Virus record (IMG/VR): IMGVR_UViG_3300045988_064121
Coordinates: 1-38,154 of that record
Reading direction: 5' to 3' (one strand)
Source: a virus
DNA: 38,154 nt
In this document: positions 56 to 20,720 of the stretch, in pieces
Layout: each line of letters opens with the position of its first letter
How positions within the stretch are numbered: position 1 is the stretch's first letter
Notes under the pieces: generated by a model
The model's database searches: none
Seen by the model: only the letters and a program-made list of their open reading frames with translations
Told to the model about the DNA's origin: nothing
Made by a program: the position numbers and the translations under genes

Positions 56-645
56 CTTACCTATTCAAATATCAACATTTAAAAGAGAAGATGAAAGAAC
101 AAGGAAAAAGGTTCAGTCATTTAATCATAGGTGTTGACTTTGGAGACAATGGTTCGAAGTATTCATGGCACTTAACAGGATTCACAAATGATTGGGATTA
201 TATGTGGGCACTTGATGAAGGAGACATGGAGAAATCAAACTCAATAGACGCAACAAAGTTCTGTAAAGCATTTGTAAGGTTCTATAAGCGTTGTATTGAA
301 TGTTATGGGTATGTAGAATGGATATTTCCGGACAGTGCTTCTAATACACTTATAAACACGCTTAGAGCTTATTTTTACACCGAAGGATTAGACGGAAGTA
401 TAATTGCACCGGTCAAAAAAAATGAGCTTACAGACCGTCCTATAACGGTTGATAGCTTACTTGTTACAGGTAGGTTAAAGATAGAAGAACATTGTAAGAA
501 TTTAATAAATGCATTGAGTGAATTGGTATGGGATGAAAAGATAGACATTCCAAAAGATGAGAACGTAAACAATATCAATGATGATTGGGATTCGTTCTGC
601 TATACATTTATAACCCATAGTGGATATATAGATTTAAGGAGGTAA
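1..645 (+). CDS. terL: Terminase large subunit, C-terminal part (continuation of 37407..38154 across the circular junction)
   Basis: Frame of 7..645 is the same frame as 37407..38154 once the 55-bp overlap is removed. Combined product is about 445 aa. The nuclease-half-like C-terminus (..DDWDSFCYTF..) sits directly upstream of the portal gene. Confidence 0.85.
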   Translation, partial: ERMVAEGLVFPYFANDCKPYLFKYQHLKEKMKEQGKRFSHLIIGVDFGDNGSKYSWHLTGFTNDWDYMWALDEGDMEKSNSIDATKFCKAFVRFYKRCIECYGYVEWIFPDSASNTLINTLRAYFYTEGLDGSIIAPVKKNELTDRPITVDSLLVTGRLKIEEHCKNLINALSELVWDEKIDIPKDENVNNINDDWDSFCYTFITHSGYIDLRR

Positions 646-648
646 GAA

Positions 649-2052
649 ATAGAAACATCTAACACACGTAGACCGTGGTTTCAGAATTACCTAAACGAAA
701 GAGGGTATTATGTAGACACAAACGCAATTGAGATTATTGAATTGTGTAATAAGTGGTATACGAATACCGAAACAGAATTTCATACGGCATACACATTAAA
801 TAACGAGGAATACACGCTTGATAAAACAGATTTTGCAAAGCGTCTATGCGAGGATGACGCAAACCTTATTGAAATCTTAGATATAAACGCTACAGAGGAT
901 AGCGTTACAAATGACATTATTTCAGACATTCTAACAAAGAATAGATTTGATGTAATGTATAGGAAACAAGTTGAGCAAATGTCTGCAAATGGTACGGTAG
1001 GAGCTTATGTGACGGTATCAAATGCCGAGATTTATGAAGATGGTACATTCAGTGGAGGAGAAATCAGAATCAACTATTGTGATTCAATGAATATCCTCCC
1101 ATTAACTGTTATAAATGATGAAATCGTTGAGGTAGCTTTCGTTGGCGTAAATTATGAAAAACTTAAGAAAGTATATGTGATGGTCATGTTCTTAAAAGGA
1201 CAAGACGAAAGATATATTGCAGAAACACATTACTTTAAAGATACAGGCGAAGAAATAAAAGACCGTGCTCAAATTGTTCAATTAGATGTGGTTAAGCCGT
1301 TTGCAATTATGAGAAACGCAAAGGTAAACAACTTACAAATGCAAGGGTACGGCTTACCGAAGATTTGGAGTGCAATTGCTCCTTTGAAAACAATTGATTT
1401 AACAATGACAATGTGGAATCGAGATTTGTTGAAATCAGATAAAATCGTTCTTGTAAATGAAGCATTAATGCAGAAAGACAAGGATGGAAAAGTAAAACAG
1501 AATCCACAATTAAAGAATATCTTTGTTCAGTTAGGTAGAGATAAGCTACCGGAAGAAAAAGCTTTATGGCAGGAATACAATCCAACAGTTAGGACGCAAG
1601 AAGTTGTGCAATCACTAGAAACGGCGTTAAGTATCTTATCAATGATGTTTGGATTCGGTACAAAGAAATACACGTTTGAAAGTGGAAGAATTGTGACGGC
1701 TACAGAATATATCGGCGAAAACCAAGACGCAATGAAGGAAGTAAATTCACAACGTAAAGAATCAACTGCATATATTCAAGATATTATTCAAGCAATAGCA
1801 TACTTCTATGAATTGACACAAGGCAGAAAGCTTAATATCAATTCATTAGACATTGCGATTGATTATGATGATACATATATCGAGGATAAGCAAAGCACGG
1901 CACAAGCGTTAAGAAATGACGCATTAACATTTGATATTCCAAGATTAAAGATTATGTACTTCATGAAGCAATACGGCTTTACAGAAGAAGAAGCAACTGA
2001 ATTATTAAGTGAAGAAATTCAAGATGATGGAGAGGGGGATGACGAAGAATAG
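649..2052 (+). CDS. Portal protein (SPP1 gp6-like); proposed ATA start
   Basis: Size, acidic C-terminus (QDDGEGDDEE) and position after terL. The frame is open from 646 right after the terL stop. GGAGG at 638-642 is followed 6 nt later by ATA 649. The first canonical start is TTG 742, which has no SD. Confidence 0.8.
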   Translation: METSNTRRPWFQNYLNERGYYVDTNAIEIIELCNKWYTNTETEFHTAYTLNNEEYTLDKTDFAKRLCEDDANLIEILDINATEDSVTNDIISDILTKNRFDVMYRKQVEQMSANGTVGAYVTVSNAEIYEDGTFSGGEIRINYCDSMNILPLTVINDEIVEVAFVGVNYEKLKKVYVMVMFLKGQDERYIAETHYFKDTGEEIKDRAQIVQLDVVKPFAIMRNAKVNNLQMQGYGLPKIWSAIAPLKTIDLTMTMWNRDLLKSDKIVLVNEALMQKDKDGKVKQNPQLKNIFVQLGRDKLPEEKALWQEYNPTVRTQEVVQSLETALSILSMMFGFGTKKYTFESGRIVTATEYIGENQDAMKEVNSQRKESTAYIQDIIQAIAYFYELTQGRKLNINSLDIAIDYDDTYIEDKQSTAQALRNDALTFDIPRLKIMYFMKQYGFTEEEATELLSEEIQDDGEGDDEE

Positions 2053-19214: not shown

Positions 19215-19219
19215 TAAAT

Positions 19220-19265
19220 ATCCTCTTTATGTGCTATAATCGGCATATAAGGAGGATTTTTTTTA
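19220..19265 (+). terminator. Strong intrinsic terminator whose 3' arm contains the endolysin SD; extended -10 (TGcTATAAT, 19232-19240) in the loop
   Basis: 15-bp stem, 19220-19234 with 19243-19257 (two G-U pairs), then T8. Confidence 0.7.
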
Positions 19266-20720
19266 ATAGATTATCAAAGTTTTAAAAACGCCGTATTAGG
19301 CAAAAGAATTGACATTGATGGAGCTTATGGTTCACAGTGTTGGGATGGTGCAATGTATTGGTACGAGAAACTAGGATACCCAAGAATTAGTTGTACAGTC
19401 AGTAAATACGCTAAAGATATTTGGATATACAGAAAGACAAATGGTATTTTAAGAAACAGTATAGAAGTATCTGTATATAAACCCGGTGATATTGTTGTGT
19501 TTAAAGAAGTGCCAAATGTTACACCATATTCGCATATTGCTATCTTTGATTCAGATATTGACGGCAAATATGGTTGGTTTTTAGGTCAAAATCAAGGTGG
19601 TGTAGGAGGAGCATTTAATTTATGTAAATTCCCATACAGTGCCACATACGATACAGGATTTAGACCTAAATGTTTAGTGAATCAAACATCTAACACTACA
19701 TATGATGTCAATAAATTGGTATCAGAGCATGCATTAGCCACACTTACAGTTGACGCAGTAGCAATTAGACAAAGCTCACCAAACGGAGCAGTTATCAAAC
19801 GTGTAAATACAGGCTTTCAATTTGAGTATTACTATAAAGTTGTCGCAAATGGGCATAGATGGGTCGTAAATAAAGATAAGACTCAATTTATGGCTATTTC
19901 TAATTCAGAAACTCAAGGTAAAGAATTGTGGGCAACATTTTCAGAAATTAAAGAAGAAACTAAGCCAACTCCAACACCTACAGAAAAGCCAGCTGAAAAA
20001 GTTGATTACACAAAGAATGTAAAAGGATACGGTGTTGATGTTTCAGAACACAACACAGATATAAATGTATCAAAATATGATTTCATTATTATTCGTGCTT
20101 GTTACGGCGAAAACACAGATGAGAAGTTTGAGAGCTTTGTAAAAGCTTGTGAAAGTGCAAATGTTCCTTATGGTGTATACGTGTATGATTATGCACTAAA
20201 TGATGATGAAGCAAAAGCAGAAGCAAATTACATTCTAAACTTAATTAAAGATAAAGATATTCAAATGGGCGTTTGGTTTGATATGGAAGATGCAGATGGA
20301 TATAAAAAGAAAAATGGTGTATTAACAAAAGAAAGATGTACCAACTCATGCAAGATATTTTGCGATATTCTAAAAGAAAAAGGATACTACACAGGTGTTT
20401 ATACCTCTACTTCTTGGATTGGAACTTATGTTGATACAGACTATCCTTTATGGATTGCAAATTGGGGTACAAATGATGGAACGATTCAATCGGACCAATC
20501 AGATAAAGCAGTGATGTATCAATATACATCAAATCCGATTGATAAGGATGTAATATATCACAATATTGATTTTTATAAGTCAAATCCAAAAAAAGAAGAA
20601 ATTAAAAAAGATGATTCAAGTAATGATTCAAAAAACGATAAAATTAATGTAAATGGAATCAATCAGATTATTGCTTTGATTTTAAAAATATTAAAAAAGG
20701 TGTCGAAACTATTTAAATAG
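19266..20720 (+). CDS. Endolysin: CHAP - SH3b-like - PT linker - GH25 muramidase - amphipathic C-terminal tail; proposed ATA start
   Basis: CHAP Cys motif DGAYGSQCWDG is encoded at about 19320-19350, upstream of the first ATG (19353). His motif YSHIAIFD. GH25 motif YGVDVSEHN...GVYVYDY...WFDMED. GGAGG at 19251-19255, ATA at 19266. Confidence 0.85.
   Translation: MDYQSFKNAVLGKRIDIDGAYGSQCWDGAMYWYEKLGYPRISCTVSKYAKDIWIYRKTNGILRNSIEVSVYKPGDIVVFKEVPNVTPYSHIAIFDSDIDGKYGWFLGQNQGGVGGAFNLCKFPYSATYDTGFRPKCLVNQTSNTTYDVNKLVSEHALATLTVDAVAIRQSSPNGAVIKRVNTGFQFEYYYKVVANGHRWVVNKDKTQFMAISNSETQGKELWATFSEIKEETKPTPTPTEKPAEKVDYTKNVKGYGVDVSEHNTDINVSKYDFIIIRACYGENTDEKFESFVKACESANVPYGVYVYDYALNDDEAKAEANYILNLIKDKDIQMGVWFDMEDADGYKKKNGVLTKERCTNSCKIFCDILKEKGYYTGVYTSTSWIGTYVDTDYPLWIANWGTNDGTIQSDQSDKAVMYQYTSNPIDKDVIYHNIDFYKSNPKKEEIKKDDSSNDSKNDKINVNGINQIIALILKILKKVSKLFK

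Follow-up and report, generated by a model that had tools for sequence, protein, structure and literature searches.

A UAU initiator-type tRNA and A-AUA start codons in a phage of Holdemanella biformis: a probable natural second channel of translation initiation

Introduction

AUA is a very poor start codon with the normal bacterial initiator tRNA. It does serve as a start codon in animal mitochondria, where a single tRNA-Met with a modified C34 reads both AUG and AUA, in initiation and in elongation alike. In this study we analysed IMG/VR virus record IMGVR_UViG_3300045988_064121 (38,154 nt, referred to throughout as the window), a phage genome in which at least 13 genes appear to start at ATA preceded by A (A-ATA) behind strong Shine-Dalgarno (SD) sequences, and which encodes a tRNA with the anticodon UAU. 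It is probable, from the comparisons described here, that this tRNA, which has U at position 37 and is derived from an initiator of the bacterial type, serves these starts in the host of the phage, Holdemanella biformis. Whereas AUA is methionine throughout in animal mitochondria, internal AUA would stay isoleucine in the phage, and a dedicated second initiator would have been added.

Several described systems share part of this arrangement. Bacterial tRNA-fMet, as encoded by metZWV and metY in E. coli and by Firmicutes, has in common with the phage tRNA an unpaired 1x72, G2:C71, C3:G70, A11:U24, G30:C40, A73 and the variable loop AGGUC. The phage tRNA differs in having UAU rather than CAU and U37 rather than A37, in being encoded by a phage, in keeping one or two of the three G:C pairs of the anticodon stem and, in the type found in the window, in its non-canonical D and T loops. 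Initiators with other anticodons have been engineered in E. coli, among them an amber (CUA) initiator and i-tRNA-AAC (bioRxiv 10.1101/2021.05.25.445580, 10.64898/2025.12.21.695813), and these likewise join an initiator body and a changed anticodon to a matching non-AUG triplet behind an SD, forming a separate channel. The same combination was found in the window, where an initiator body carries an anticodon that matches AUA at 13 SD-preceded gene starts. Whereas the engineered pairs are laboratory constructs, the phage pair is natural, is conserved across lineages, is used on essential virion genes and adds a fourth complementary position, U37 with the A at -1. Pairing between position 37 of tRNA-fMet and mRNA position -1 has been established experimentally, and an A37U mutant favours A(-1) (PMC10018350), which is exactly the pairing seen here. 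In the E. coli libraries of that study the effect was a modest modulation, whereas the A at -1 is invariant at every ATA start of the phage, which suggests that A(-1) is part of the start signal.

Gut phages that recode stop codons by means of suppressor tRNAs (PMC11210395, PMC10879173) are also comparable, in that a phage tRNA alters one class of codon, late genes are enriched among those affected and the genes are mis-annotated. In those phages it is in-frame UAG or UGA that is concerned, at termination and elongation, whereas the change described here is at initiation; in the window there are no in-frame stops and the only tRNA is UAU, not CUA or UCA. Reassignment of a stop codon, which was considered in view of the ATAG context of some ATA starts, was rejected, since the open reading frames (ORFs) are intact under translation table 11 and all three standard stops are in use (TAA, TAG and TGA, 24, 20 and 15 times). 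Finally, elongator tRNA-Ile(UAU) species that read AUA occur in Mycoplasma mobile and in a tilS-deletion suppressor strain of B. subtilis (PMC3575796, PMC3919564). The phage tRNA has their anticodon; however, it lacks the paired 1:72, the purine (t6A) at position 37 and the tRNA-Ile body of such elongators, having an initiator body and a 1x72 mismatch instead.

Results

ATA codons behind Shine-Dalgarno sequences

In a preliminary description of the window ten genes of the virion and lysis modules had been proposed to start at ATA behind SD motifs, and all ten codons and their motifs are present where they had been placed. They lie at the 5' ends of long ORFs with 5-10 nt between SD and ATA, and the 17 nt ahead of them form duplexes with the anti-SD at energies from -9.9 to -17.1 kcal/mol. 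The list was sound for its sites but incomplete, as ATA codons at 28418, 29153 and 37069 also follow SDs, and the total comes to 13 ATA starts, firm or probable, out of about 61 genes whose starts could be assigned. SDs are on average stronger at ATA starts than at canonical starts of the same genome (-12.4 and -9.9 kcal/mol, respectively; Mann-Whitney p=0.002), which would be expected where a start must recruit a minority tRNA. G is found at +4 in 9 of the 13 ATA starts and in 7 of 48 canonical ones (p=3e-4).

It had further been stated that no ATG, GTG or TTG occurs until well inside each protein. This holds for seven of the ten genes (649, 2049, 3462, 7630, 10206, 11674 and 19266), in which the first canonical codon lies 10-140 codons 3' of the ATA, but not for the remaining three. 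For the gene at 9428 there is an in-frame ATG at 9356, within the upstream gene; at 14250 a TTG (14256) is found two codons downstream with a poor SD spacing of 13; and at 16150 a GTG is located three codons upstream, within the SD itself. The properly spaced SD belongs to the ATA in all three exceptions. Stop-start overlaps of the form ATAG at 2049, 9428 and 14250, and the context ttaattaATA shared by the capsid and major tail genes, were correctly described.

Simple tallies of SDs are distorted by SD-like motifs within genes and by the codons that adjoin the ATAs, and a per-ORF test was used instead. In this test the codons behind an SD were counted in + strand ORFs of at least 100 codons that have no SD with ATG, GTG or TTG in their first 30 codons. 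ATA was the top codon, with 9 occurrences in the window and 248 across 34 close relatives, and the runners-up were mere neighbours of the ATAs. Among 46 outgroup loci ATA was at background (10, rank 6).

Homology and variation at the predicted N-termini

Profiles of the PHROG collection align up to the N-termini defined by the ATA codons, and together with the variation among relatives they indicate that these are, as far as sequence can tell, real start codons. Relatives were compared at the start codons in more than 30 related contigs, 79-95% identical to the window. All of the genes concerned are on the + strand and each start is preceded by A. The portal gene (649-2052) follows the SD AAGGAGGT (636-643); phrog_533 matches from residue 22 while the first canonical codon, a TTG, is residue 32, so that homology reaches ten residues upstream of it, and the codon is ATA in 33 of 33 distinct relatives. 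The gene that overlaps the portal stop codon (2049-2858; ATA in 34/34 relatives) had been labelled fibre-like but encodes a head protein, matched by phrog_1220 from residue 3. The supposed tail fibre (3462-4070) is likewise mislabelled, being a virion-module protein of unknown function whose residues 4-198 align with positions 4-193 of phrog_24103; its start is ATA in 15 and ATG in 5 distinct contexts among relatives. The major capsid protein (7630-8499) aligns over residues 3-288 with positions 3-294 of phrog_422, and its start is ATG in one of 33 distinct contexts. A minor head or connector-like gene (9428-9787) opens with an ATAG overlap. In the putative major tail protein (10206-10712) phrog_3099 matches from residue 12, six residues ahead of the ATG at residue 18, and ATG replaces the start in one of 29 distinct contexts. 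Pfam gave nothing for portal or capsid, which were assigned with PHROGs.

The frame of the tape measure gene (11674-14253) opens at its A-ATA, the first ATG following 140 codons later, and the profile match begins at residue 7. Dit (14250-15122) starts within an ATAG overlap. Of the two lysis genes, the holin (16150-16656; Pfam Phage_holin_4_1) has ATG in 3 of 22 distinct contexts among relatives, and the endolysin (19266-20720; Pfam Glyco_hydro_25) is matched by endolysin PHROGs from residues 3-6, its first ATG being residue 30. Two genes of the early module are also included. The RusA-like resolvase (28418-28786), matched by phrog_1682 from residue 2, has the SD AAGGTGG (28405-28411, -9.5 kcal/mol) and ATA in 11 of 11 relatives, and the replication initiator (29153-29893), with profile matches from residues 2-5, has the SD GGGGGTGA (29140-29147, -14.3 kcal/mol); a GTG upstream of the latter start (29138) reads GAG in relatives. 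The small terminase gene, TerS (37069-37410), probably starts at its A-ATA behind GGGGGT (37057-37062). A small ORF (33975-34169) is ambiguous, as it could start at A-ATA 33975 or at ATG 33981. By module, ATA starts account for 11 of 33 packaging, virion and lysis genes and for 2 of 28 early and lysogeny genes (p=0.026).

It had been suggested that homologues with ATG might have their N-termini at the ATA positions, and this was borne out for the capsid. Met1 of capsids of about 70% identity (289-290 aa) falls exactly on ATA 7630, the homologue reading MPNNI.LAK.. and the window IPNQIALAK... The closest capsids in the databases (93, 87 and 86% identity) are annotated short, at 275, 256 and 256 aa. 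In the stretches between ATA and the first canonical codon, variable sites among relatives number 45, 25 and 127 at codon positions 1, 2 and 3, and there is no in-frame stop; the 140 N-terminal codons of the tape measure gene give 22, 12 and 74, again free of in-frame stops. The only variant seen at the ATA start codons is ATG (at 3462, 7630, 10206 and 16150). A gene of the virion module at 4321 (+) that opens with ATG in the window opens with ATA in two relatives, and start codons have thus switched both ways within the family, canonical starts being otherwise stable. In outgroup phages, with capsids at most 68% identical, the homologous capsid codon is ATG in 45 cases and GTG in 2.

An initiator tRNA by descent

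The tRNA gene (34519-34594, + strand) has the anticodon UAU, U37, the anticodon loop CUUAUUA, an unpaired A1xA72 and an encoded CCA. It is labelled Ile(tat) by ARAGORN and scores 49.1 bits with the Rfam tRNA model. Its sequence nevertheless indicates that it is an initiator by descent, from a bacterial tRNA-fMet. When 5,426 genomes of E. coli were searched by BLAST (E<=10), all matches listed were genes annotated as tRNA-Met, at a median of 4 places per genome and 78% identity, and no tRNA-Ile gene was among these listed matches. The best E. coli match is to a three-gene cluster between mltA and amiC, which we take to be the initiator cluster metZWV. Matches in the phage collection were tRNA-Met or fMet-like. 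Alignment with tRNA-fMet of E. coli and of the Listeria type is colinear, at about 78-81% identity, and the initiator marks (unpaired 1x72, G2:C71, C3:G70, A11:U24, G30:C40 and A73) are present.

Comparison of 10 distinct variants shows that this initiator body with UAU and U37 is under purifying selection. G2:C71, C3:G70, A73, A11:U24 and G30:C40 are invariant, 99.5% of cells in the cloverleaf are paired, and there are 6 compensatory pairs, a number matched by 0 of 500 shuffles. All four tRNA types tested fold as a cloverleaf with nucleotide 1 unpaired. In the anticodon stem, two alleles of the family are set apart by three compensatory pairs (TCGGT/GCCGA and CTAGT/GCTAG), with the loop CUUAUUA unchanged throughout; UAU with U37, in place of the CAU with A37 of tRNA-fMet, is thus invariant in the family. 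Two sister types occur in human-gut contigs (given here by L numbers). The first has A1xA72 with canonical D and T loops (L245, L248, L257 and others) and the second the classical C1xA72 (L247, L252). The mismatch at 1x72 is not of one kind, AxA being found in the window and in type-2 variants and CxA in the L247/L252 type.

The tRNA is the only one in the window and stands between a small gene resembling sigma region 4 and the packaging genes. Terminator-like hairpins are located on both sides, one with a T run just 5' of it (34479-34495, +), which ends the upstream early unit, and one 3' of it (34678-34696, +); no ribozyme or other RNA was found beside the tRNA. L252 and L257 have their tRNA in the same position, ahead of TerS. 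The small protein directly upstream (34166-34492, +) has weak similarity to sigma-70 region 4 and helix-turn-helix (HTH) proteins and is possibly a late-gene regulator. About 1 kb downstream, between a ParB-like gene and TerS, is a gene for a radical-SAM protein (35618-36925, +; 435 aa, GTG start). A role for this protein as a tRNA modifier was considered and dropped, its sole similarity being a distant one to the PA0069/Rv2578c family, and no relative in the PDB was found by sequence.

Association of the tRNA with ATA starts

The proposal that the UAU initiator-like tRNA serves the ATA starts gains support from its initiator descent, from the match between U37 and A(-1), from co-occurrence and from recurrence in L252, and we regard the predicted link as strongly supported by computation. 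A is found at -1 in all 13 ATA starts and in 25 of 48 canonical ones (Fisher p=0.001). No relative departs from this A at any ATA site, while -2 and -3 vary. The unusual U37 of the tRNA is the Watson-Crick partner of this A, and the two together suggest a four-base pairing, A-AUA:UAUU; the host-type pair U-AUG:CAU-A corresponds to A-AUA:UAU-U in the phage.

Among contigs of at least 30 kb, the tRNA is found in 21 of 22 of the close family and in 0 of 13 of the outgroup, which use ATG. The metagenome that yielded the one close-family contig without the tRNA has a separate 6-kb fragment bearing it. L252 is diverged from the window (capsid 53% and portal 62% identical) and has a tRNA with C1xA72, UAU and U37 just upstream of TerS. 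Its TerS, portal, capsid and two further ORFs have SDs with A-ATA starts, as does its homologue of the gene at 9428, whose frame opens at its own A-ATA; several of its frames open at ATA. L257 and L245 behave in the same way, and the TerS gene of L257, too, starts at A-ATA. Three variants of the tRNA, in at least two diverged lineages of gut phages, are thus accompanied by A-ATA starts, and the distribution of the trait is patchy relative to capsid similarity. Supply of a codon is an unlikely role for the tRNA, since ATA is the rarest isoleucine codon within genes (14-16%; about 108 in the genes counted).

Phage genome and host

The first 55 nt of the window are identical to the last 55 (38100-38154), which makes the window a circular assembly, about 38.1 kb in length. 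Its junction is crossed by the gene for the large terminase, TerL (from 37407 through the end to 645). With a G+C content of 33% the genome has the gene set of a temperate siphovirus-like phage, including an integrase (22265-23362) and a divergent HTH repressor (24221-24667). Replication and recombination genes form an early module (about 24.7-34.5 kb), and packaging, head, tail and lysis genes run from about 34.7 kb through the junction to about 21 kb.

Integrated copies with an identical integrase adjoin genes for NanE, TldD, PmbA and SseB (L283:1-4900, L284:1-4700). In NCBI and UniRef the exact matches of the flanking TldD/PmbA and NanE proteins carry the name Holdemanella biformis (Erysipelotrichaceae), and it follows from these names that the host of the phage is Holdemanella biformis, a common human gut bacterium. 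No close cultured phage was found in the phage collection by megablast and protein comparison; positions 7000-12000 had no megablast match there and only distant protein matches, of at most 51%.

Two other features may be mentioned. A match to the type II hammerhead ribozyme (25422-25488, +; 39.4 bits against a gathering score of 37) is intergenic within the early module. A second small protein with weak sigma-70 region 4 and HTH similarity (16631-16897, +) overlaps the 3' end of the holin gene.

Discussion

A model for initiation at A-AUA

Our preferred interpretation, held with moderate confidence, is that the phage family has a natural orthogonal initiation system, in which a second initiator tRNA reads the four-base signal A-AUA through U34-A35-U36-U37. 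This tRNA would have arisen from an initiator tRNA-fMet by change of the anticodon from CAU to UAU and of position 37 from A to U. The SD would position the 30S subunit at A-AUA, and in the P site U34-A35-U36 would pair with AUA and U37 with A(-1). A mismatch at 1x72 excludes initiators from EF-Tu. In the phage tRNA this mismatch, with G2:C71 and C3:G70, would permit formylation and use by IF2 and bar EF-Tu; the 1:72 mismatch together with 2:71 and 3:70 are the determinants of the formylase (PMC5389676). The host initiator, with CAU and A37, would read A-AUA poorly, in which case the output of the A-AUA genes may be expected to depend on the phage tRNA. The first residue would probably be formyl-isoleucine. 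The anticodon dominates recognition by both the methionyl- and isoleucyl-tRNA synthetases (MetRS and IleRS). As, in addition, some IleRS enzymes of Firmicutes and Mollicutes accept UAU (PMC3575796, PMC3919564), isoleucine is the better guess for the amino acid carried, methionine being possible. Such a private channel could gate or privilege the synthesis of capsid, tail, lysis and some replication proteins in several gut phage lineages, and it would be invisible to gene callers.

A number of observations weigh against this interpretation. The three consecutive G:C pairs of the initiator anticodon stem are not all kept, the stem being GC/GC/ug in the window and au/GC/ug in the commonest allele, and within it only G30:C40 is invariant, 31:39 being U.G and not an R:Y pair. 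Natural initiators with au/GC/gu stems do exist, although U.G at 31:39 is not among them (PMC5389676). The elbow of the window-type tRNA is degenerate: its D loop (AGUAGUA, 34532-34538) lacks GG, its T loop (UGCAAAU, 34572-34578) carries a G at position 55, and one nucleotide bulges from the T stem. In the sister types of L245 and L247 the loops are canonical. Most alleles of the tRNA go undetected by ARAGORN and were found by BLAST and pattern scans. ATA starts in two early genes, those of the RusA-like resolvase and the replication initiator, are at odds with a simple late switch. Lastly, initiator-like tRNAs with UAU and A37 in other contigs are accompanied by no convincing ATA starts in the flanks available.

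These A37-type TAT tRNA genes were seen in viral contigs (L004, L241-L244, L246) and in metagenome-assembled genomes (MAGs; L122, L124 and, as fragments, L121/L123), which are unrelated and often G+C-rich. They could be mutated copies of initiators, remnants of att sites or further AUA initiators, and for want of convincing ATA starts beside them they support neither side. A scan of MAG contigs with the allele-A anticodon arm revealed neither the phage family nor the host, but initiator-like TAT tRNAs or fragments in unrelated MAGs.

Possible purposes of a second initiator

It had been proposed that dependence on the phage tRNA acts as a lock or timer on late proteins. The concentration of ATA starts in packaging, virion and lysis genes agrees with this, and for a temperate phage such control is plausible, the genes affected being those for holin, endolysin and virion proteins. 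A clean late switch is not supported, however, as ATA is also used by the two early genes and about two thirds of the late genes, including those for the scaffold, TerL and a minor tail protein, keep ATG. The candidate purposes may include a lock against leaky expression in lysogens, privileged initiation when the host is shut off, and escape from defences that target tRNA-fMet.

If the mechanism is as proposed, the altered loop could serve mainly to evade a defence or shut-off that inactivates the host tRNA-fMet, for example by a VapC-type anticodon-loop nuclease, so that translation from A-AUA persists. The use of ATA by genes whose products are needed in bulk and by early replication genes fits such privileged translation better than it fits a late timer, and phages are on record as evading tRNA-targeting defences by means of tRNAs altered in the anticodon loop (PMC10264068). 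On the other hand, no gene for a nuclease or shut-off function was identified in the window, and the two thirds of genes that start at ATG, those for TerL and the scaffold included, would still need AUG initiation. We consider this purpose unlikely as the main one, although it is the best of the alternatives.

Other explanations of the ATA starts

A somewhat less likely alternative accepts the ATA starts as real but has the host CAU initiator read them, with a third-position mismatch tolerated behind strong SDs, and takes the phage tRNA for an ordinary elongator tRNA-Ile(UAU) that supplies AUA codons. The ARAGORN label would then be right, the greater strength of SDs at ATA than at ATG starts would be explained, and the roughly 108 internal ATA codons would give an elongator something to read. 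The host belongs to the Erysipelotrichia, a class close to the Mollicutes, and unmodified UAU elongators are known from Mycoplasma mobile and from the B. subtilis suppressor strain (PMC3575796, PMC3919564). Nevertheless the body of the tRNA matches initiators and not tRNA-Ile, the 1x72 mismatch that would exclude EF-Tu is conserved, and U is found at 37 where elongators use a purine. ATA is the least used isoleucine codon, and the complementarity of U37 with A(-1) would be meaningless for an elongator. It is also difficult to reconcile so poor a start, when read by the normal initiator, with its use for the major capsid protein.

It is very improbable that translation begins instead at the next ATG, GTG or TTG downstream and that the in-frame stretches upstream are untranslated, although public gene callers make exactly such calls. 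The homology that reaches upstream of the canonical codons, the codon-like pattern of substitution and lack of stops in these stretches, and the polymorphism between ATA and ATG exactly at the predicted codon all speak for the ATA starts; the downstream codons lack SDs, and if they were the starts, 420 nt of non-coding sequence would precede the tape measure gene. That ATG was misread as ATA in sequencing or assembly, a worry raised in the preliminary description, can be set aside, since dozens of contigs, assembled independently and drawn from several metagenomes and collections, show these ATA codons again amid about 10% ordinary variation.

Significance

In the full-text literature searched, coverage of which is incomplete, no case was found, in phages or elsewhere, of a natural initiator tRNA given over to a non-AUG start; the searches turned up engineered initiators with mutated anticodons and the recoding of stop codons by phages. 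On the evidence so far, this is a new kind of system in natural biology, while each of its components has laboratory precedents. It also exposes a systematic error of annotation: public databases give truncated versions of the capsid, portal, tape measure and endolysin genes in this clade, and the phage tRNA is either labelled 'Ile' or missed by tRNA finders.

If the interpretation preferred here is true, this would be the first natural reassignment of a start codon by a dedicated initiator tRNA, and the counterpart, on the side of initiation, of stop codon recoding in phages. With one G:C pair, a changed anticodon and an altered elbow, the tRNA could show in a natural setting how much drift initiator identity tolerates, and the family as a whole whether pairing between position 37 and -1 can belong to a start signal; engineered tRNAs have long been the only means of studying these two questions. 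A ready-made orthogonal pair of initiator and start codon would be of use for synthetic biology in Firmicutes. For the phages themselves, the finding suggests a new level at which genes are controlled, or defences evaded, in a bacterium common in the human gut.

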